A stretch of DNA of 64,000 nucleotides from an uncultured Chloroflexia bacterium (GTDB lineage Bacteria; Chloroflexota; Chloroflexia; QHBQ01; JADMIH01), in assembly GCA_963797095.1 (NCBI GenBank), contig CAWCNY010000007.1, positions 96,001-160,000 of the forward strand, written 5' to 3'. The translations under genes were made by a program, and so were the position numbers. Positions 10,546 through 60,060 of the stretch are shown one piece after another; the first letter of the stretch is position 1, and each line of letters begins with the position of its first letter. The notes under the pieces are model-generated. The model did not search any database. It was not told the origin of the DNA and saw only the letters and a program-made list of their open reading frames with translations.

Positions 10546-10586
10546 CTCGCCACTCGTCACTCGTCACTCGTCACTCGCCACTCGTC
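10546..10586. repeat. Heptamer array (CTCG[C/T]CA) x ~6 between rpmH and rnpA
   Basis: Directly visible. Confidence 0.9.
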
Positions 10587-13128: not shown

Positions 13129-13424
13129 CCTTCGGGCATTCCCGAACGCATAACTATCCTAACTTTGTCGTGCTCGGCCCTTAAAAACTGCGTACAAACC
13201 CACGATCACCACCACTACAAGCAGCAAGTGCCAGGGCGCACGACCGCCCCACCCCAGAACAAGACCAACCAGGTATATCAATCCTAGCCCAACCACCAGG
13301 CCCCATACCAGGCGCTCATCCTTCATCAAGGGCGATTATAGCACGGACGACGGGCGAAAGACGAAGGACGATAGTTCCTGATCACTCGCCACTCGTCACT
13401 CGCCACTCATCGTCCATCGTCGCC

Positions 13425-18664: not shown

Positions 18665-18725
18665 AGGAACCTGGAACCTGGAACCTGGAACTTCCGACTA
18701 TCGACTACCCACTACCCACTACCAA
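18665..18725. repeat. Composite heptamer arrays GGAACCT + CCGACTA
   Basis: Directly visible. Confidence 0.85.
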
Positions 18726-19062: not shown

Positions 19063-19193
19063 GTTTCTGGTTCCTGGTTCCTGGTTCCTGGTTGATCAAT
19101 ACCTAAACCAAAACAGGACACCAGCAACATCCACCTACCAGGAACCAAAACGGGAAATGTGGAACTTGGAACTTGGAACTTGGAACTTGGAAC
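19058..19193. repeat. Heptamer arrays TGGTTCC and GGAACTT at the IS boundary
   Basis: Directly visible. Confidence 0.85.
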
Positions 19194-23390: not shown

Positions 23391-24488
23391 ATGAGTAACC
23401 ACATTGTCCCATCTCAATTAGCAACCGCTCCAAAAGAATACGAGCGTCTCGGCATGAAGAAAGGTCTTATCGAAGAGTGGGAAGATGGCATCCGCACCGG
23501 CGGAGTGAAAGGCACCTATGAATGGTGGTACTTCGATGCCCACCTGAACGATGCCTCCAAAGTTGTAATTGTCTTCTACACCAAGAACCTCATAGATGTA
23601 GGCAAACCTCTTGCTCCTTATATCGCCTTCACGCTTGACCGTCCGGATGGCACCCATTTCGAAAAGGAATACCATGCTCCCACTCAATCTTTCTCAGCCT
23701 CCAAAGAGACATGCGATGTTCGCATAGGTCCCAATGTCTTCAAAGGCGACCTGCACTCTTATGAAGTCCATCTCCAGATGGAAGGCCTCACCTGTAACAT
23801 CACGCTCAAAGGCACCGTGCCGCCCTGGCGACCTGAAACCGGCTATCTTCTCTTCGGTGAGCGCTTCGAACACTACTTTGCATGGCTTCCTGCTGTGCCC
23901 CAGGGCGAGGTCGAGGCCACCATCATCATTGACGGCAAAAGTGAGCACTTTACCGGCATAGGCTACCACGACCATAATTGGGGCAACGTATCTCTGGTCA
24001 AACTCATGCATCACTGGTACTGGGCACGTGGCAAAATCGGCGACTACACCGTGATCGCCTCCTATATAACAGCCGAGAAACGATATGGCTACAAAACCTT
24101 CCCCGTGTTCATGCTCGCCCATAACGGCAAGATCATCGCCGACGACGCCGGTCAGGTGCATTTTTCCGCCAGCGATACTCAGTCAGACAAACAAACCGGC
24201 AAGCCCGTCGCTAACGTGCTCGTCTACGATTACAACGATGGGGGCATCCGTTACCTACTCACCTTCAAGCGCAAGAACACCATCCTCCGTATGAAGCTCA
24301 TCGATGGCATACGCGGCATCAGAAGGCCGTTGGCCCAATTAATCGGCTTCGACGGCTTATTCTTGCGCTTCACCGGCGATCTTGCGATTGACCACTATGA
24401 GGAAGGCAAGCTAGTCACATCTGAGCATGAAGAAGCGATCTGGGAGCTTATGTACTTGGGACATGTCCCTAAAGCGCGAGCTGTCTAG
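23391..24488 (+). CDS. AttH/CrtC-like lipocalin-fold protein
   Basis: YEWWYFDA, GYHDHNWG, WYWARG. Confidence 0.8.
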   Translation: MSNHIVPSQLATAPKEYERLGMKKGLIEEWEDGIRTGGVKGTYEWWYFDAHLNDASKVVIVFYTKNLIDVGKPLAPYIAFTLDRPDGTHFEKEYHAPTQSFSASKETCDVRIGPNVFKGDLHSYEVHLQMEGLTCNITLKGTVPPWRPETGYLLFGERFEHYFAWLPAVPQGEVEATIIIDGKSEHFTGIGYHDHNWGNVSLVKLMHHWYWARGKIGDYTVIASYITAEKRYGYKTFPVFMLAHNGKIIADDAGQVHFSASDTQSDKQTGKPVANVLVYDYNDGGIRYLLTFKRKNTILRMKLIDGIRGIRRPLAQLIGFDGLFLRFTGDLAIDHYEEGKLVTSEHEEAIWELMYLGHVPKARAV

Positions 24489-24577
24489 CAAATGGGGATG
24501 CCAGGTGCACCCTTGCAGAGGGAGCCGGGATGTCCCGAAACTGAAAGTAGGGTACAGAGTTATGGTTTATTATAGTA

Positions 24578-25363
24578 ATGGTCAAAATCATGGAAGATGA
24601 ACTCTTCATAGTGTTCGGCGGGGGATGCTTCGGCACCCACCACACCCACCACATAGAAAAAGGCCGGGCACGGGGCCGTATCTCCCCCAACTCGCGTATC
24701 ATAATGGTCGACCGCAACGCCCACCCGCCCGCCCTCGACCTACCGGAGATCGCCCAGAACCGACACCTCACCTACCTACGGAGCGACTGGCTAGACTACA
24801 TGAAATCGGCCTGGGACACCCTCCCACCCAACGCACAGGCCATCCCTGCCCCCGTCGCCCCTCACCTCGCGTTCGACTGGATGGTGTGGAGCGTCCAACA
24901 GCGCCTGGGCGAACACGCCATCTCCGTAGAGCCGATGGAGCACAACTTCGGCGGCCTCCCCTACGAATACCTCGCCCCGGCAGGTGTCCGCTACATCTCC
25001 GCCGCCAACTGGATATGCCCAACCAACTGCCGCGCTCCGCATATCTGCCCCATGATCCGCGATGTGCGCACCTGGGAACTGGCCGACACAGTCAATGCCT
25101 ACGCCCAGTCCCACGCCGAAAGCACCGCCGCCGCCATCGTTCTCCAACCTCGCTTTCGCGTCCCCGGCGTCGATACCCTCCGCGTCCATGAGTACACCGA
25201 GGCCCGCGACCGCATCCTCACCCTCGCCTCCCAACCCGAAATGGCGGGCAAAGAGATAGTGGTCGCCACCGTCTCACCCTGCCACGGCGCGGTCAGCCTC
25301 CTCAAGATCGGCGCTAAAGCTGCTTTAGCCGAACAGCAAGCACATACTTCAAGGGCGGTGTAA
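24578..25363 (+). CDS. Hypothetical Rossmann-like protein with Cys cluster
   Basis: IVFGGGCFG; CPTNCRAPHICP; SPCHG. Confidence 0.7.
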   Translation: MVKIMEDELFIVFGGGCFGTHHTHHIEKGRARGRISPNSRIIMVDRNAHPPALDLPEIAQNRHLTYLRSDWLDYMKSAWDTLPPNAQAIPAPVAPHLAFDWMVWSVQQRLGEHAISVEPMEHNFGGLPYEYLAPAGVRYISAANWICPTNCRAPHICPMIRDVRTWELADTVNAYAQSHAESTAAAIVLQPRFRVPGVDTLRVHEYTEARDRILTLASQPEMAGKEIVVATVSPCHGAVSLLKIGAKAALAEQQAHTSRAV

Positions 25364-25365
25364 CC

Positions 25366-26175
25366 ATGTTCAACAAAGTACAGGGCTTCTACGATAACGA
25401 CGTGCAGCGGGAATGGGAGCGATTGGAGCGTCACAGGACCGAATTCGCCGTGACTATGCAGGCCCTGCGCGAGTACCTGCCTCCTCCACCCGCGCGTATC
25501 CTGGACATCGGAGGCGGGCCGGGGCGCTATTCGATCGCGCTCACGCAGCAGGGCTATCACGTTACGCTGTTCGATCTCTCGCCGGGCCTGCTATCCTTCG
25601 CCCAGTCAAAGGCAACGGAGCAAGGGGTTCAGATCGACGACTACATACAGGGCAACGCCCTTGACCTGAGCCACTTCGCCGACCACAGCTTCGATGCCGT
25701 GCTCCTGATGGGCCCGCTCTACCACCTGACTTACCTTGAAGATCGGCAAAAGGCGGTACGTGAAGCCCACAGGGTACTAAAACCCGGCGGCATGATTTTT
25801 GCCGCCTTCATCACTCGCTACGCTGGCGTGCGCTGGTCGGCCAAATATATGCCAACCTGGATATCGGATCACGCCTACGAGCTTGAGAAACTATTGATTG
25901 AGGGTAAGAACCTGCCACCGCCCGGAGCCAAGTTCATCAACTCCTATTTTGCCCACCCGTCCGAGATAAGGCCATTGATGCAAGAAGAAGGCTTCGCCAC
26001 CGTCAGCGCCATAGCCTGTGAAGGCGTGATAAGCATGATCGATGAAGAGATAAACACCTTCGAGGGCGAGCTATGGGAAACCTGGGTTGACCTCAACTAT
26101 CTCCTGGGCAAAGACCCCACCGTGCACGGAGCCGCCGAGCACATACTCTACGTGGGCAAAGCCCAATCCGGCTAA
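25366..26175 (+). CDS. Class I SAM-dependent methyltransferase
   Basis: EWERL, ILDIGGGPGRY, FDAVLLMGPLYHL. Confidence 0.9.
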   Translation: MFNKVQGFYDNDVQREWERLERHRTEFAVTMQALREYLPPPPARILDIGGGPGRYSIALTQQGYHVTLFDLSPGLLSFAQSKATEQGVQIDDYIQGNALDLSHFADHSFDAVLLMGPLYHLTYLEDRQKAVREAHRVLKPGGMIFAAFITRYAGVRWSAKYMPTWISDHAYELEKLLIEGKNLPPPGAKFINSYFAHPSEIRPLMQEEGFATVSAIACEGVISMIDEEINTFEGELWETWVDLNYLLGKDPTVHGAAEHILYVGKAQSG

Positions 26176-26241
26176 ATACATCTCAAGCCCGATCACAACC
26201 AACCCCTCCAACGCTATACTACACAAGACATCCTTCCGAAA

Positions 26242-26307
26242 ACTCGCCACTCGCCACTCGCCACTCGCCACTCGCCACTCGCCACTCGCCACTCGCCACT
26301 CGCCACT
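26242..26307. repeat. Heptamer array (ACTCGCC) x ~9 abutting a TATAAT box
   Basis: Directly visible. Confidence 0.95.
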
Positions 26308-26482
26308 ATAATGACCATGTTCATGATTCGCACTCGCACATAACAGCGGCAAAGCTCCAACCGCTGACACATACCTGAGCTAGCTGTCCAGGGCCGCGAC
26401 TAGCCGCACGGCCCGCCTGCTTTGCCGCGTTACAACCATAACACCCTCGGCCTCGTGCCGCTGGGGTTATGGTTTTTTGTTT
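26307..26482 (+). promoter_or_regulatory. Leader-peptide transcription attenuator (M[TMFM]IRTRT*)
   Basis: TATAAT 26307; uORF stop at 26341-26343; stem 26341-26355/26419-26432; terminator 26434-26478 with U-tract. Confidence 0.7.
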
Positions 26483-26519
26483 GGTCAACGCGGCTACCGG
26501 TCAGCAAAGGAGCAACCCC

Positions 26520-27359
26520 ATGGGAACATCGCGTAGACGAGGCGAACAGCGCCACATCCGAAGTACCCCTCGGCCCCTTGCCCGCACCAGTTGGGATGCC
26601 GTCGCCAACTGGTACGACGGCTGGGTGGGCGACGCAGGCAGCGACCACCACCGTGAGCTAGCCATCCCGTCCCTGCTCGATCTACTCGAGCCGAAGCAAG
26701 GCGAGAGCATCCTCGATATAGGCGCGGGCCAGGGCGTGCTCGCATCCTACATCGCTTCCGTTGGGGCCTCCTACACAGGCGTAGACGCATCGCCACGCCT
26801 CGTTGAGATGGCGCGTCGCAGGCACGGAAAGAGCAGGCGTTTTCTGTCGGGCGATGCTTGCCAGCTCAGCGCCACACCCGGCCTGCGAGCAGGCCAATTC
26901 GATGCCGTCACCTTCCTCCTGAGCATCCAGGACATGGACCCATTGGAGAAGGTGCTGGCCTCGGCTGCCTGGGCGCTCAAGCCGGGCGGGCGCGTCGCCA
27001 TCGTGATGGTACACCCCGCCTTTCGTGTACCGCGCCAAAGCGGATGGGGCTGGGATGGCCTGCGCAAGCTGCGCTACAGGCGAGTAGAGAGCTATCTCAC
27101 TCCCCTGGCGGTGCCGATGAAGTCTATCTCAAAATCGTCGGGAGGTCAAACAAGACCAACCCGCACTTTCCACCGTCCCCTGAGCGCCTACGTGAATGCC
27201 CTCGCAGGCAACGCCCTCCTGCTTGAGCGCATGCTGGAGATTCCGGCGCACAAAATACACGCCCCACCGAATGCTTATGAGGACAAAGCCAACGAGCGCG
27301 CACGCCGGGAGATACCGCTTTTCCTGGGCCTACGCGCCCGCAAAATGGAGGCGCTCTGA
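26520..27359 (+). CDS. Class I SAM-dependent methyltransferase, basic, under attenuator control
   Basis: AAGGAG RBS; TSWDAVANWY, ILDIGAGQG, HPAFRVPRQSGW, FHRPLS.Y, EIPLFL. Confidence 0.9.
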   Translation: MGTSRRRGEQRHIRSTPRPLARTSWDAVANWYDGWVGDAGSDHHRELAIPSLLDLLEPKQGESILDIGAGQGVLASYIASVGASYTGVDASPRLVEMARRRHGKSRRFLSGDACQLSATPGLRAGQFDAVTFLLSIQDMDPLEKVLASAAWALKPGGRVAIVMVHPAFRVPRQSGWGWDGLRKLRYRRVESYLTPLAVPMKSISKSSGGQTRPTRTFHRPLSAYVNALAGNALLLERMLEIPAHKIHAPPNAYEDKANERARREIPLFLGLRARKMEAL

Positions 27360-27373
27360 TGAATATAGTAGAA

Positions 27374-27470
27374 TGATGGGTACCGACCTGAATTCCAGTC
27401 TCACAACCATCGGGGCGTTTGCCACAATGCTATGGCTCCTTATTCTGCGCCGCTGGCATACTTTCGACTT
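27374..27470 (+). pseudogene. C-terminal remnant of an ArsB-type transporter
   Basis: GTDLNSSLTTIGAFATMLWLLILRR resembles the ArsB 'G.DLGP.LT.IGSLATMLW' segment; followed by a USP gene. Confidence 0.5.
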
Positions 27471-27551
27471 GGAATCGGCGTCATGCCAATTTGGCTCGCC
27501 CTTGCCATACTCGCCCTCTGGCTCACTTCTCTGTAGACAAAGGAGGAGACA

Positions 27552-28037
27552 ATGGCCGACAGATCGACCTTGATATGCTTGAGCGGTCTCGATACGGACG
27601 AATTTATCGAGCGTGCAGCACCGCATATTCCACGGGACCGCCACCTCACGCTTTTGTATGTGGTAGATACAAGGCCGACAGAGGAGCTTGGCTACCTGGC
27701 GCGCAGAATGTACAGCAGGCCAGGAGTATCGTCGCAGCATGCCGGTATTATAGAGACAGCCGAACAGCAGACAGCCGAAGCTGTACTGAACGAGGCGGGG
27801 AGCAAATGCCTGCAATTGGGGTTTGACGCGCAGAAAATCCAGAGAGAAGTACGGAAAGGCCGCCCTGAACAACAGATCGTGGAGTTTGCACGCGCACGTG
27901 AAACCAATGTCGGGCTGATAGTAATTGGGTCGGCCTATAAGCGAGGACCGAGTGCAGCGCCCGGCCCTGCCAGCATCGGGCACGTTGCCAGGTTCGTTGT
28001 AGACCATTCGCCCTGTGATGTACTGCTGCTCCGCTGA
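27552..28037 (+). CDS. Universal stress protein
   Basis: GRPEQQIV, LIVIG, IGHVARFVVDHSPCDVLLLR. Confidence 0.9.
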   Translation: MADRSTLICLSGLDTDEFIERAAPHIPRDRHLTLLYVVDTRPTEELGYLARRMYSRPGVSSQHAGIIETAEQQTAEAVLNEAGSKCLQLGFDAQKIQREVRKGRPEQQIVEFARARETNVGLIVIGSAYKRGPSAAPGPASIGHVARFVVDHSPCDVLLLR

Positions 28038-29117: not shown

Positions 29118-29552
29118 TCAGGCGCGCTCTTCGACCCGCACGCCGGTCATTCTGTCGCCTACCGAGATCTTCTTGACCACGTCCATACCCTCGATCACCT
29201 GGCCGAAGTTGGTGTACTCACCGTCGAGCCAGGAGGCATCGCTCTTGGTGATGAAGAACTGGCTGTCGTTATTGCGCGACTTGTCCATGCCACGGGCCAC
29301 GCCGAGAGCGCCCTCGCCGAAGTGGACACGGTTATACTCGGCAGACATCTTGCCGCCGCCGGTGCCGTTACCGAGAGGGTCGCCACCCTGGATCACCCAG
29401 TTCTCGACGCGATGGAAGTTGCGCCCGTTGAAATCGCCTGCATTGGCCTTGCCTTCGAAATTGGCTATGGTGTTTGCCACACCTGCCGAGGCGTCGGTGT
29501 GTAGCTGGCACACTATAGTGCCCTTGCCTGTCTCGATTACCATTACTTTCAT
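29118..29552 (-). CDS. Cyclophilin-type PPIase (cytoplasmic)
   Basis: FHRV..WVIQGGDP.G.GTGG, SQFFIT, LDG.YT.FGQV. Confidence 0.95.
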   Translation of the reverse strand: MKVMVIETGKGTIVCQLHTDASAGVANTIANFEGKANAGDFNGRNFHRVENWVIQGGDPLGNGTGGGKMSAEYNRVHFGEGALGVARGMDKSRNNDSQFFITKSDASWLDGEYTNFGQVIEGMDVVKKISVGDRMTGVRVEERA

Positions 29553-29579: not shown

Positions 29580-30389
29580 CTACTGCTTATCCACTATTGC
29601 CATAGAGGTGATTTTATCGCCGATGGCGATCTGGTTTACTACGTCCATGCCCTGGACAACCTGCCCCCAGTTGGTGTACTGGCCGTCCAGGTAGCTTGCG
29701 TCGCTCTTGGTGATGAAGAACTGGCTGTCGTTGTTGATCGCGGGGTCGCCGCCACGGGCCACGCCTAGCGCGCCTGCTTTGAAGGTAAGCTGGTTATATT
29801 CGGAGGGCATATCACCACCGCCGGTGCCGTTGCCGAGGGGGTCGCCGCCTTGAATTACCCAATCTTCGACGCGATGGAAGGTGAGGCCATTGAAATAACC
29901 CGAATTGGCTTTTGACTCGAAGTTGGCAATGGTCTTGCTGACGTTGGCGGAGGAGTCGGTATAGAGCTTGGCGATGATGCGTCCCTTGGAGGTGTCGAGC
30001 ACCATGTACTTACCCGCGTCCATAGAGGCGACGGCTGCCTGGGCATCGGTGGAGGAGGGTGGGGGCGTAGAGCTAGAATTCCCATTCCAGGGCTGGAGGA
30101 GCCAGAGCAGCACCAGCACCAACGGTATCATGCCAAGCAGCCATATGGCGGCATAGCGCTGGATGCTGAAGGGAGGGAGGATGCGGTCAAAGGTGCTGGG
30201 CGGGGCCTGTTGCACGCGCCCGCCTCTGCTATTTACAGGCTGACGGGTGGCAGGCGGCCTTGCGCCGGATGCTGGTCTGGGAGCGCCGGGGCGTGGGGCC
30301 CGGCTCTGGCGGGAACCCGACGCGCCGGCTGTATTTCGGGGAGCACCGGCGCTACTACTGCTACTACGTTTCTTGGGTGGTTGCGACAT
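29580..30389 (-). CDS. Membrane-anchored cyclophilin-type PPIase
   Basis: Basic disordered N-terminus, one TM helix, cyclophilin domain very similar to its neighbour. Confidence 0.93.
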   Translation of the reverse strand: MSQPPKKRSSSSSAGAPRNTAGASGSRQSRAPRPGAPRPASGARPPATRQPVNSRGGRVQQAPPSTFDRILPPFSIQRYAAIWLLGMIPLVLVLLWLLQPWNGNSSSTPPPSSTDAQAAVASMDAGKYMVLDTSKGRIIAKLYTDSSANVSKTIANFESKANSGYFNGLTFHRVEDWVIQGGDPLGNGTGGGDMPSEYNQLTFKAGALGVARGGDPAINNDSQFFITKSDASYLDGQYTNWGQVVQGMDVVNQIAIGDKITSMAIVDKQ

Positions 30390-50548: not shown

Positions 50549-50595
50549 GCACTCGGCACTCGGCACTCGGCACTCGGCACTCGGCACTCGGCACT
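50549..50595. repeat. Heptamer array (GCACTCG) x ~6.5
   Basis: Directly visible. Confidence 0.95.
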
Positions 50596-54401: not shown

Positions 54402-54556
54402 GACGAAGGACGAATGATAACTGGTGACGAGTGACGAGTGACGAGTGACGAGTGACGAGTGAGTAATGCATACTTCGTACTGCTTATTCTTTCGTCCTTC
54501 GTCGTCACCTATCACGTATCACGTATCACGTATCACGTATCACGTATCACGTATCA
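54402..54556. repeat. Composite nested heptamer arrays (GACGAAG / GTGACGA / CTTCGTC / TATCACG)
   Basis: Directly visible in the divergent intergenic region. Confidence 0.9.
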
Positions 54557-59973: not shown

Positions 59974-60060
59974 GGTAGTCGGAGGTTCCAAGTTCCAAGT
60001 TCCAAGTTCCAAGTTCCAAGTTCCTGAGCTCTGACTACCGACTACCGACTACCGACTACT
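59974..60060. repeat. Nested arrays: GGTAGTCGG - (GTTCCAA)x~6 - (GACTACC)x4
   Basis: Directly visible; the flanks are reverse complements. Confidence 0.9.

Follow-up and report, generated by a model that had tools for sequence, protein, structure and literature searches.

Organization of the locus

We analyzed a 64,000-nucleotide stretch of DNA (the window) from an uncultured Chloroflexia bacterium (assembly GCA_963797095.1, contig CAWCNY010000007.1, positions 96,001 to 160,000), in which a very short upstream open reading frame (uORF) and a structured leader RNA precede a gene for a class I S-adenosylmethionine (SAM)-dependent methyltransferase. An earlier reading of the sequence alone, called here the original prediction, had proposed that this uORF encodes a leader peptide with an Arg-x-Arg stall motif that makes the methyltransferase inducible by ribosome-targeting drugs. 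The leader region is bounded by one methyltransferase gene that ends at 26175 and by the methyltransferase gene in question, which starts at 26520. The uORF is co-oriented with the latter and lies 176 nt before its ATG (Table 1).

Table 1. Features of the leader region and the methyltransferase gene, in window coordinates. SD, Shine-Dalgarno sequence; UTR, untranslated region; MFE, minimum free energy structure; TRF, Tandem Repeats Finder.
Feature	Position (strand)	Sequence or description	Basis or remark
Probable promoter	26192-26220 (+)	-35 ATCACA, 17-nt spacer, -10 TATACT (26215-26220)	Promoter scan and alignment to relatives' TTGAC-N17-TATACT
Perfect heptamer tandem array, 5′ UTR	26242-26307 (+)	(ACTCGCC)x9.4	TRF
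TATAAT at array/uORF junction	26307-26312 (+)		Sequence; absent from promoter-scan output
Leader ORF	26311-26343 (+)	ATG ACC ATG TTC ATG ATT CGC ACT CGC ACA TAA = MTMFMIRTRT-stop; in-frame starts 26311, 26317, 26323; stop TAA 26341-26343	Sequence
Arg-Thr-Arg codons	26329-26337 (+)	CGC ACT CGC	Sequence
Local hairpin A:B	26344-26366 (+)	CAGCGG 26344-26349 with CCGCTG 26361-26366	Duplex test
GCTCC in A:B hairpin loop	26354-26358 (+)	Complements SD GGAGC	Paired to SD in window MFE
Strand A of long-range helix P1	26346-26355 (+)	GCGGCAAAGC	RNAalifold consensus; begins 3 nt past uORF stop
TAGCCGC	26401-26407 (+)	Complement of GCGGCTA 26490-26496	Possible second long-range pair across terminator; read by eye
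Strand D	26419-26432 (+)	GCTTTGCCGC (26419-26428) plus GTTA	Partner is A (P1), or segment E and SD-proximal CAAAGG
Intrinsic terminator	26434-26478 (+)	AACCATAAC 26434-26442 / GTTATGGTT 26466-26474, then T-run to 26478	Sequence, scan, RNAalifold
Segment E through SD	26487-26512 (+)	Segment E AACGCGGC 26487-26494; SD AAAGGAG 26506-26512	Sequence, folding, duplex test
Class I SAM-dependent methyltransferase	26520-27359 (+)	279 aa, isoelectric point (pI) 10.41	Pfam Methyltransf_11/23/25

Several segments of the leader are complementary to one another. TAACAGCGGCAAAGC (26341-26355) pairs with GCTTTGCCGCGTTA (26419-26432), CAGCGGCA is complementary to TGCCGCTG (26456-26463), and GCCGCGTT is complementary to segment E; a GC-rich interior lies between segment B and strand D. 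The positions originally given for the uORF, the helix, the terminator, and the methyltransferase were all borne out by the sequence, as was the remark that the uORF has no SD, since no purine-rich stretch precedes it. The 219-nt leader folded with a z-score of -2.44, and an equally good fold was obtained in 5 of 200 shuffles. Rfam 15 gave no match in 26200-26520 even at E ≤ 10, and six weak matches elsewhere in the scanned region (25500-28000).

Conservation of the Arg-x-Arg leader peptide

When 41 genomes (G000 and 40 relatives) were searched with the protein, orthologues of the methyltransferase with 63 to 69% identity turned up in 16 other genomes. At 14 of these 16 loci, which belong to the window's order, the gene is preceded by a leader uORF with Arg-x-Arg, following the pattern ...[IVTN]-R-[LIT]-R-x-x-stop; one of the two remaining loci, L025, ends inside the gene. 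The leader peptides terminate in ..VIRLRTN, ..VIRIRTN, ..GIRIRIN, ..M[TI]RIRTK, ..VVRIRNS, ..MTRIRIH, or ..NRIRMN, and two extra copies recovered with an RNA model of the leader (L276 and L277, see below) read MSIRIRTK and MSMFMTRLRIR. The conserved uORF that the original prediction expected upstream of homologues is thus present, and Arg-x-Arg is kept in it through synonymous codons.

The codons were compared in 15 leaders (alignment A2 plus L276 and L277). R-[LIT]-R is present in all of them with synonymous codon changes, Arg being encoded by CGC, CGG, AGG, or CGA, and the middle residue being Leu (TTA, TTG, CTC), Ile (ATT, ATA), or, in the window only, Thr (ACT). The spacing from the second Arg codon to strand A is constant in all 15: the motif is followed by exactly two codons, and the triplet after these reaches one base into strand A. 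This triplet is the TAG stop in the relatives and CAG in the window, where the stop TAA comes one codon earlier. The synonymous replacements and the fixed spacing suggest a functional arrest peptide rather than a purely RNA element, and they support the view that the uORF is a real, conserved coding element under selection for Arg-x-Arg.

Coupling of the leader to the methyltransferase gene

We built a covariance model of the leader (R1) from 13 sequences, with helix P1 and the terminator base as its structure. Two genomes flagged as unpublished, G021 and G022, are counted in our tallies; they were excluded from the alignments and the model, and no statement rests on them alone. The model had a single match in the window's genome, 17 matches in 16 of 40 genomes of the order, and matches in 15 of 151 genomes sampled from the class, all of them confined to two genera, g1 and g3. 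Each match lay at an orthologue of the methyltransferase gene or, for L277, at a truncated remnant of one, and the leader was present in all 14 g1 and g3 genomes having the orthologue. The same RNA leader was found before no other gene in the 40 genomes of the order or the 151 of the class. Because the orthologue is patchily distributed, occurring in 5 of the 9 g1 genomes that are at least 90% complete (G000 excluded), the methyltransferase appears to behave as an accessory gene.

L277 is a second leader copy in genome G034 (contig C766, minus strand) with P1 and the terminator intact. It precedes a methyltransferase remnant that comprises residues 210-276 only, so that the leader has outlived the gene. 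A metagenome scan with the protein yielded only 3 orthologues (50 to 58% identity) among 13 loci and was not used for conclusions. A scan of the genome collection with the pattern of the two P1 strands returned at least 120 stretches in unrelated bacteria; the inverted 10-mer was too unspecific to be used.

Comparison with known arrest leaders

The notion that Arg/Lys-x-Arg/Lys (+x+) is a signature of macrolide-dependent arrest agrees with three previous studies (PMC8298421, PMC6310831, PMC6851288). In ErmDL, arrest takes place at R6-L7-R8 while Leu7 occupies the P site; telithromycin-dependent arrest of ErmDL strictly requires the +x+ motif, and +x+ stalling was not seen in the absence of drug (PMC8298421). 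In Listeria, rli80 contains a 14-aa ORF with RLR, described there as a signature of macrolide-resistance leaders, that controls hflXr by attenuation (PMC6310831). The 9-aa tlrB leader of Bacillus subtilis, MIIQFIRYR, shows tylosin-dependent arrest at RYR, which relieves a terminator and an SD-sequestering hairpin before the gene for the 23S rRNA G748 methyltransferase RlmA(II); the induction is self-limiting, as modified ribosomes stop stalling, and a +16 toeprint distance is given (PMC6851288). Arrest leaders of the +x+ type that respond to macrolides and ketolides are also treated in PMC12583479.

By analogy, the closest precedent for the present leader is the tlrB (yxjB) leader. Both are very short, with I-R-x-R near the end (..VIRLRTN or MIRTRT here), both are followed by an intrinsic terminator and an SD-sequestering structure, and both regulate, or would regulate, a single Methyltransf_11-type gene. 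In tlrB, however, the arrested ribosome covers the terminator base, whereas here the terminator lies approximately 95 nt past the arrest site and no stem that competes with it was found. The present leader also has a 10-bp long-range helix at the uORF stop codon, and its enzyme, with a single Cys, is not recognizably RlmA.

The ErmDL leader of erm(D) shares with our leaders the R-L-R motif of most relatives, an expected arrest point that puts the middle residue into the P site, and the position of the uORF before a methyltransferase gene. It differs in that the window's copy is R-T-R, the leader is shorter than the 14 aa of ErmDL, the enzyme fails the Erm models, and the hosts are environmental Chloroflexota, Gemmatimonadota, and Proteobacteria. 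The rli80-hflXr system likewise combines a small RLR ORF, an intrinsic terminator, and a single downstream resistance gene, but it has an explicit antiterminator and anti-antiterminator, not found here, and it regulates a GTPase rather than a methyltransferase. In mef/msr(D), macrolide-dependent stalling on a leader peptide is coupled to transcription attenuation as well, although the regulated genes encode an efflux pump and an ABC-F protein (PMC4335068, PMC10314930).

The self-limiting induction of tlrB (PMC6851288) is a parallel for a feedback in which no drug takes part: R-L-R would stall on ribosomes that lack the enzyme's methyl group and pass on modified ones, so that modification is held in homeostasis. 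The strict coupling of leader and gene and the very basic character of the enzyme family, which fits a ribosome substrate, would both be accounted for. We consider this explanation quite improbable, because +x+ stalling is not seen without drug (PMC8298421) and because a gene present in 5 of 9 near-complete genomes of its genus looks more like an accessory trait than a housekeeping modification.

Association of R-L-R uORFs with the gene family across phyla

A total of 97 loci of the gene family in Chloroflexota, Gemmatimonadota, and alpha- and gamma-Proteobacteria gave 91 upstream regions with at least 250 nt of non-identical DNA, in which ORFs of 3 to 70 codons were listed within the 350 nt before the gene. 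RLR was encoded in a uORF in 34 of the 91 regions on the forward strand, compared with 4 on the reverse complement and 10.2 ± 2.7 in dinucleotide shuffles (maximum, 20 in 200), and R[LI]R in 47, compared with 6 and 13.2 ± 3.5 (maximum, 22 in 60); related sequences are not independent, so that these shuffle statistics overstate the significance.

The peptide context around R-L-R is unrelated between clades, as in ..VIRLRTN-stop, ..VAQRLRNEQRH.., ..ARLRQAGDAASRR-stop, ..GRLRIA-stop, and ..WRLRDSHRG... It reads MMI.YMVAQRLRNEQRHLLGS.. in Promineifilaceae-type Anaerolineae, ..ARLRQAGDAASRR-stop in Parvibaculaceae, ..VRIR.. in Devosia, and ..TFRLRST-stop in a Dehalococcoidia metagenome-assembled genome. 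In gamma-proteobacteria it reads ..GRLR[FI]A-stop, ..FRLRTLAA-stop, or ..GRQRAA-stop, and in Longimicrobium and other Gemmatimonadota ..WR[IL]RDSHRG.. or ..GRLRG... Since the contexts differ by clade, the comparison argues for repeated retention of R-L-R leaders rather than descent of a single inherited sequence. The geometry R-L-R-x-x-stop recurs in the Dehalococcoidia locus L079 and in the gamma-proteobacterial loci L048 and L050, and a hairpin followed by a U-run lies between the uORF and the gene in 25 of the 47 R[LI]R loci; in three more it is cut off by a miscalled start.

Some of these leaders are built differently. In a group of Anaerolineae/Promineifilaceae loci (L043, L046, L090, L091, L093, L097, and L099) the R-L-R uORF has 34 to 36 codons with the motif in its middle, and two tandem terminator-like hairpins precede a methyltransferase of the same gene family. 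In L048 and L050, as read by eye, the codons after R-L-R together with the stop form the 5′ arm of a local hairpin, the 3′ arm of which (e.g., TAAGTGGCGAGCGG in L050) is complementary to a segment approximately 100 nt downstream that adjoins an anti-SD/SD hairpin. This layout, which has no terminator, is nearer to the classical four-segment erm type.

A leader of this kind could also serve as a general translation-stress or arginine-supply attenuator that reports slow Arg decoding when charged tRNA-Arg is scarce, or any slowdown of elongation, with an enzyme that adapts the ribosome or a metabolite. The uORF-based sensor of whiB7 answers many translation perturbations (PMC10274678), and nothing in the coding sequence of the leaders is invariant except the two Arg codons. 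Across lineages, however, these codons vary among CGC, CGG, CGA, CGT, AGG, and AGA, so that no single isoacceptor would be sensed. The enrichment of Leu and Ile in the middle position (47 of 91, against 13.2 in shuffles) is not needed for a starvation sensor and fits the literature on +x+ arrest. Nor is the gene behind the leader tied to arginine metabolism. In amino-acid attenuators the regulatory codon is repeated in a run, unlike in the present leaders, which have only two Arg codons that are never adjacent, and no antiterminator was found in any of the 13 leaders folded below. We therefore regard such an attenuator as unlikely and prefer a leader that responds to a drug.

RNA structure of the leader

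RNAalifold applied to 13 full leaders returned two consensus helices, P1 (A:D) and the terminator base. P1 has 10 pairs, of which 8 are invariant and 2 show one-sided G-U variants, whereas 3 of the 9 pairs of the terminator base show two-sided changes; the interior enclosed by P1 is variable in sequence and length. The local duplex A:B was better than expected from shuffles in the window (p = 0.020) and reached p ≤ 0.02 in 9 of 14 leaders. Where the relatives have TAGCGGC/GCCGCTA, the window has CAGCGG/CCGCTG, a two-sided change. The pair TAGCCGC/GCGGCTA has matching changes in L076 (CGAGCCGC/GCGGCTCG, read by eye) and is part of the MFE of L071.

In full-length folds, strand D was paired to the segment behind the terminator and the SD was mostly paired. 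When P1 was enforced in the full leader, the probability that the SD is unpaired rose in 12 of 14 leaders. The models thus partly show an RNA switch that would consist of a choice of partner, D pairing either with A or with the post-terminator/SD region.

To model three ribosome states (free RNA, a ribosome at the Arg-x-Arg codons, and a ribosome at the stop codon), we folded transcripts that extended to the U-run and kept the nucleotides under the ribosome unpaired. P1 had a probability of 1.0 in 10 of 13 leaders in the free state; in 12 of 13 it was 0.78 to 0.80 when the ribosome stood at Arg-x-Arg, and in all 13 it was 0 when the ribosome stood at the stop. A ribosome is commonly cited as extending 15 to 16 nt beyond its P site in the 3′ direction. 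Because the spacing from the motif to strand A is fixed, an arrested ribosome ends at the foot of strand A and leaves it free, whereas one that has come as far as the stop codon has to open the whole of the strand.

Two RNA mechanisms were considered and rejected. The first is a conserved antiterminator formed by strand A and the terminator interior. The complementarity of CAGCGGCA to the terminator interior, which the original prediction had pointed out, is present in the window and better there than in shuffles (p = 0.007), but it is not conserved: the remaining 13 of the 14 leaders gave p ≥ 0.12. The second is a stalled ribosome as the thermodynamic driver of P1; a ribosome at Arg-x-Arg does not lower the cost of P1.

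These structures bear on the possibility that the uORF is incidental, the conserved part being a non-coding RNA (P1 and the terminator), such as a ligand- or protein-binding attenuator, in which the Arg codons are kept for the sake of the RNA. P1 and the terminator base are nearly unchanged among the leaders, the window's uORF has no SD, and no thermodynamic link was seen between a ribosome at Arg-x-Arg and the terminator. Yet synonymous changes keep Arg and Leu while the RNA changes (CGC to AGG; TTA to TTG or CTC), and in the unrelated leaders of other phyla R-L-R is encoded by other nucleotides and set in another RNA context. The interior of P1 varies in sequence and length, unlike a ligand pocket, and Rfam offers no match even at E ≤ 10. 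An incidental uORF is, in our judgment, very improbable, and we proceed with a translated arrest leader.

The methyltransferase and its substrate

Pfam assigned only generic class I domains to the protein (Methyltransf_11/23/25), and no NCBIfam model scored above its cut-off. It fell far below the Erm models (NF000499, 19.4 bits against a cut-off of 212; NF000468, 21.5 against 350) and the ksgA model TIGR00755 (22.4 bits against 171), so that it is not a member of Erm. Together with a pI of 10.41, this agrees with the original description of a basic enzyme that does not look like Erm. All 94 orthologues examined have a pI above 9, and in 82 of the 94 the N-terminal tail has a net charge of at least +3; in the window the tail is basic, Lys/Arg-rich, and disordered (MGTSRRRGEQRHIRSTPRPLART). 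The AlphaFold2 model has a predicted local distance difference test (pLDDT) score of 80.3, with low confidence in a nearly invariant FRVPRQSGWGWD loop.

By sequence, the nearest relative with a solved structure is the orphan 3e8s (E = 1.9e-8). No RlmA chain was among the listed Foldseek/VIA matches, which is still compatible with a distant relation. RlmA(I) and RlmA(II) (TlrB), the m1G745 and m1G748 methyltransferases, combine an N-terminal Cys4 zinc-binding module with an RlmA-type catalytic domain, and the present protein has a single Cys and a basic, disordered N-terminus. The substrate could not be read from the fold, as the neighbors are orphan or small-molecule enzymes without a gap in the ranking and the protein atlas gives generic names only. 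The family comprises 2427 proteins at E ≤ 1e-20 with names no finer than "class I SAM-dependent methyltransferase" or "UbiE", and of 462 candidate stretches picked by pattern from species-representative genomes, 445 encode a relative. We found no description of the methyltransferase family or the leader in the literature, in a full-text search that did not cover the supplementary RLR-leader lists of PMC6310831 and PMC6851288.

Given its pI, the pI above 9 in all orthologues, and the charged tail, the enzyme most likely acts on RNA, most simply rRNA, or on another ribosome component. The leader may, however, be a drug sensor for an enzyme that methylates the antibiotic or another small molecule and not the ribosome. 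The closest structures by Foldseek and VIA (3e8s, Z 24.4; 6f5z, Z 22.4; 3bkw, RebM, ToxA, and NovO) are orphan, natural-product, or small-molecule methyltransferases, which keeps a small-molecule substrate, including the drug, in play, and the lack of an Erm match points in the same direction. The basic pI and tail charge, kept so widely among the orthologues, would have no evident use in such an enzyme, and the tRNA methyltransferases METTL6 and Trm9 also appear among the structural neighbors, at lower ranks but without a clear gap. We think a small-molecule substrate rather unlikely and favor the ribosome as the target.

The methyltransferase frame is open from an ATG at 26469 in the 3′ arm of the terminator (a 296-aa ORF, 26469-27359), and in some relatives it is open about 50 codons upstream (open frame of 330 aa). 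A start inside the leader may be chosen by automatic gene callers; the SD belongs to the start at 26520. An ORF that runs from strand D or the terminator 3′ arm into the gene was set aside, as the frame relation is not kept in L061.

Promoter and heptamer array

The original prediction noted a TATAAT at 26307. This site has no -35 partner and no counterpart in the relatives, and the promoter scan instead picked 26192-26220. There the window's TATACT aligns to the conserved -10 of eight relatives' loci, and TACATCTCAAGCCCGATCA aligns to their TACATCTCCAGCCnGATTGAC. The ACTCGCC array is an insertion specific to the window, in place of a small hairpin and an SD-like GAGAAGG before the GTG start in the relatives. 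The repeat recurs throughout the genome: 41 of the 42 matches to 26200-26530 in the window's genome are limited to the array part. Because the promoter-like site aligns with the relatives' TTGAC..TATACT and the array is an insertion, the TATAAT is probably fortuitous, a by-product of the array/uORF junction, and the promoter is likely to be 26192-26220. Transcription may alternatively start at the TATAAT and give an mRNA in which the uORF is nearly leaderless.

The window is dotted with perfect or near-perfect 7-base tandem arrays whose unit differs by site (e.g., 1786-1910, 10546-10586, 13383-13408, 18666-18723, 19063-19193, 26242-26307, 50549-50595, 54424-54556, and 59985-60059), with units such as GTGATAC x17.9, GCACTCG x6.7, and TCACGTA x7.4. 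Short tandemly repeated heptamers occur in filamentous cyanobacteria, and the arrays of the window, here in a Chloroflexia-type genome, are reminiscent of them.

Proposed mechanism and its weighing

We estimate a probability of roughly 0.55 that a drug-dependent arrest leader controls the methyltransferase gene. Transcription would most likely start just after TATACT (26215-26220) and run through the heptamer array into a leader ORF of 7 to 10 codons. A tunnel-bound antibiotic of the macrolide/ketolide type would cause arrest on Arg-x-Arg; the A site would then hold the second Arg codon, and the P site the codon before it (ACT in the window, a Leu or Ile codon in the relatives). P1 would be the first structure able to form during transcription and would hold D off the SD region. 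Where A is melted or captured by B, D could pair behind the terminator and next to the SD, and the GCUCC anti-SD would help to close the ribosome-binding site. Completed translation of the leader would melt P1 and send A to B and D to E and the SD, giving the closed state, whereas arrest on Arg-x-Arg would block following ribosomes, preserve P1, and keep the SD open. The terminator between D and the gene would lower basal read-through; the leader foldings revealed no RNA means of relieving it. The enzyme would then methylate rRNA or another ribosome component and blunt the drug.

We have much less confidence in this particular RNA path than in the core claim. With the terminator 3′ arm paired at a probability of at least 0.97 in the free, Arg-x-Arg-stalled, and at-stop states in 13 of 13 leaders (1.00 in all three for the window), the stems that the original prediction held to be mutually exclusive ahead of the terminator do not compete with it, and folding with or without the ribosome footprint, the check it proposed, leaves the terminator unchanged. 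Constraint folding found no antiterminator in any of the 13 leaders in the three ribosome states, so that the classical antitermination step is missing. The duplex D:E, significant in the window (p = 0.020), reached p ≤ 0.02 in only 6 of 14 leaders, and the pairing of the interior anti-SD with the SD beat shuffles in only 4 of 14. P1 costs 0.0 to 14.7 kcal/mol in the free full-length leader and 3.1 to 17.4 kcal/mol in the stalled one, and at equilibrium the full-length leader favors the SD-closed fold. Since a stalled ribosome does not favor P1 thermodynamically, a translation-reset switch would need a kinetic argument; its logic would be kinetic, and the thermodynamic calculations neither require nor support it.

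Other points against the interpretation concern the peptide and the enzyme. The window's own uORF encodes R-T-R, has no SD, and stops one codon earlier than those of the relatives. The leader is missing before one orthologue of the order, L023, where the upstream region is a different one. Among the 91 upstream regions, 44 have no R[LI]R uORF, the looser RxR is uninformative (71 forward, 64 on the reverse complement, 56.8 ± 3.8 in shuffles), and the dependence among related sequences makes the statistics overstate the significance. The structural neighbors of the enzyme, described above, belong on the same side.

The original interpretation is thus partly supported, being right on the sensor, whose induction by drugs is a prediction, and wrong on the promoter and on the competition between terminator and antiterminator. 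Because the pairing of an Arg-x-Arg leader with this methyltransferase recurs in several bacterial phyla, the locus appears to be a promising candidate for a new ribosome-modifying enzyme that drugs induce. The device is of a known kind, a +x+ arrest leader, with an unusual RNA layout, and it guards an uncharacterized, widespread enzyme family.

Neighboring genes

Three co-oriented genes just upstream (23391-26175) may form a small tailoring cassette, which is not conserved beside the leader in relatives. They encode a CrtC/Diels-Alderase-like lipocalin protein (23391-24488), a 261-aa protein with no Pfam or NCBIfam match (24578-25363), and a second class I methyltransferase (25366-26175). On the opposite strand, 29118-29552 (-) and 29580-30389 (-) are adjacent paralogous ORFs that share FHRVE.WVIQGGDPLGNGTGGG and, read by eye, have the look of cyclophilin-type peptidyl-prolyl isomerases; the latter has a long low-complexity N-terminal extension rich in Pro, Ser, and Ala.

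Implications

Few sequence signatures indicate a response to macrolide-type drugs when the gene concerned resembles no known resistance gene; R-L-R leaders are one of them. In the present case they mark a large methyltransferase family for which there is neither a curated model nor a closely related solved structure. If our interpretation is correct, the family would provide a new ribosome-protecting modification, possibly at a new modified site, beside those of Erm, RlmA(II), and Cfr. Inducible modules of this kind would then be widespread in uncultured soil and water bacteria, Gram-negatives included, and the logic of the leader RNA would depart from the textbook four-segment model.

A wider proposal, which we put forward as doubtful, is that the methyltransferase founds a cross-phylum family of ribosome-modifying enzymes, not recognized before, whose members are gated by how the ribosome handles an R-L-R nascent peptide, an ancient sensor-effector pair of environmental bacteria for compounds in the ribosomal tunnel that works by a translation-reset RNA logic. 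If true, finishing the leader would melt the helix that opens the SD, and arrest three codons before the stop would preserve it. Such a module would extend over Chloroflexota, Gemmatimonadota, and alpha- and gamma-Proteobacteria and would be one that resistance catalogues do not contain.

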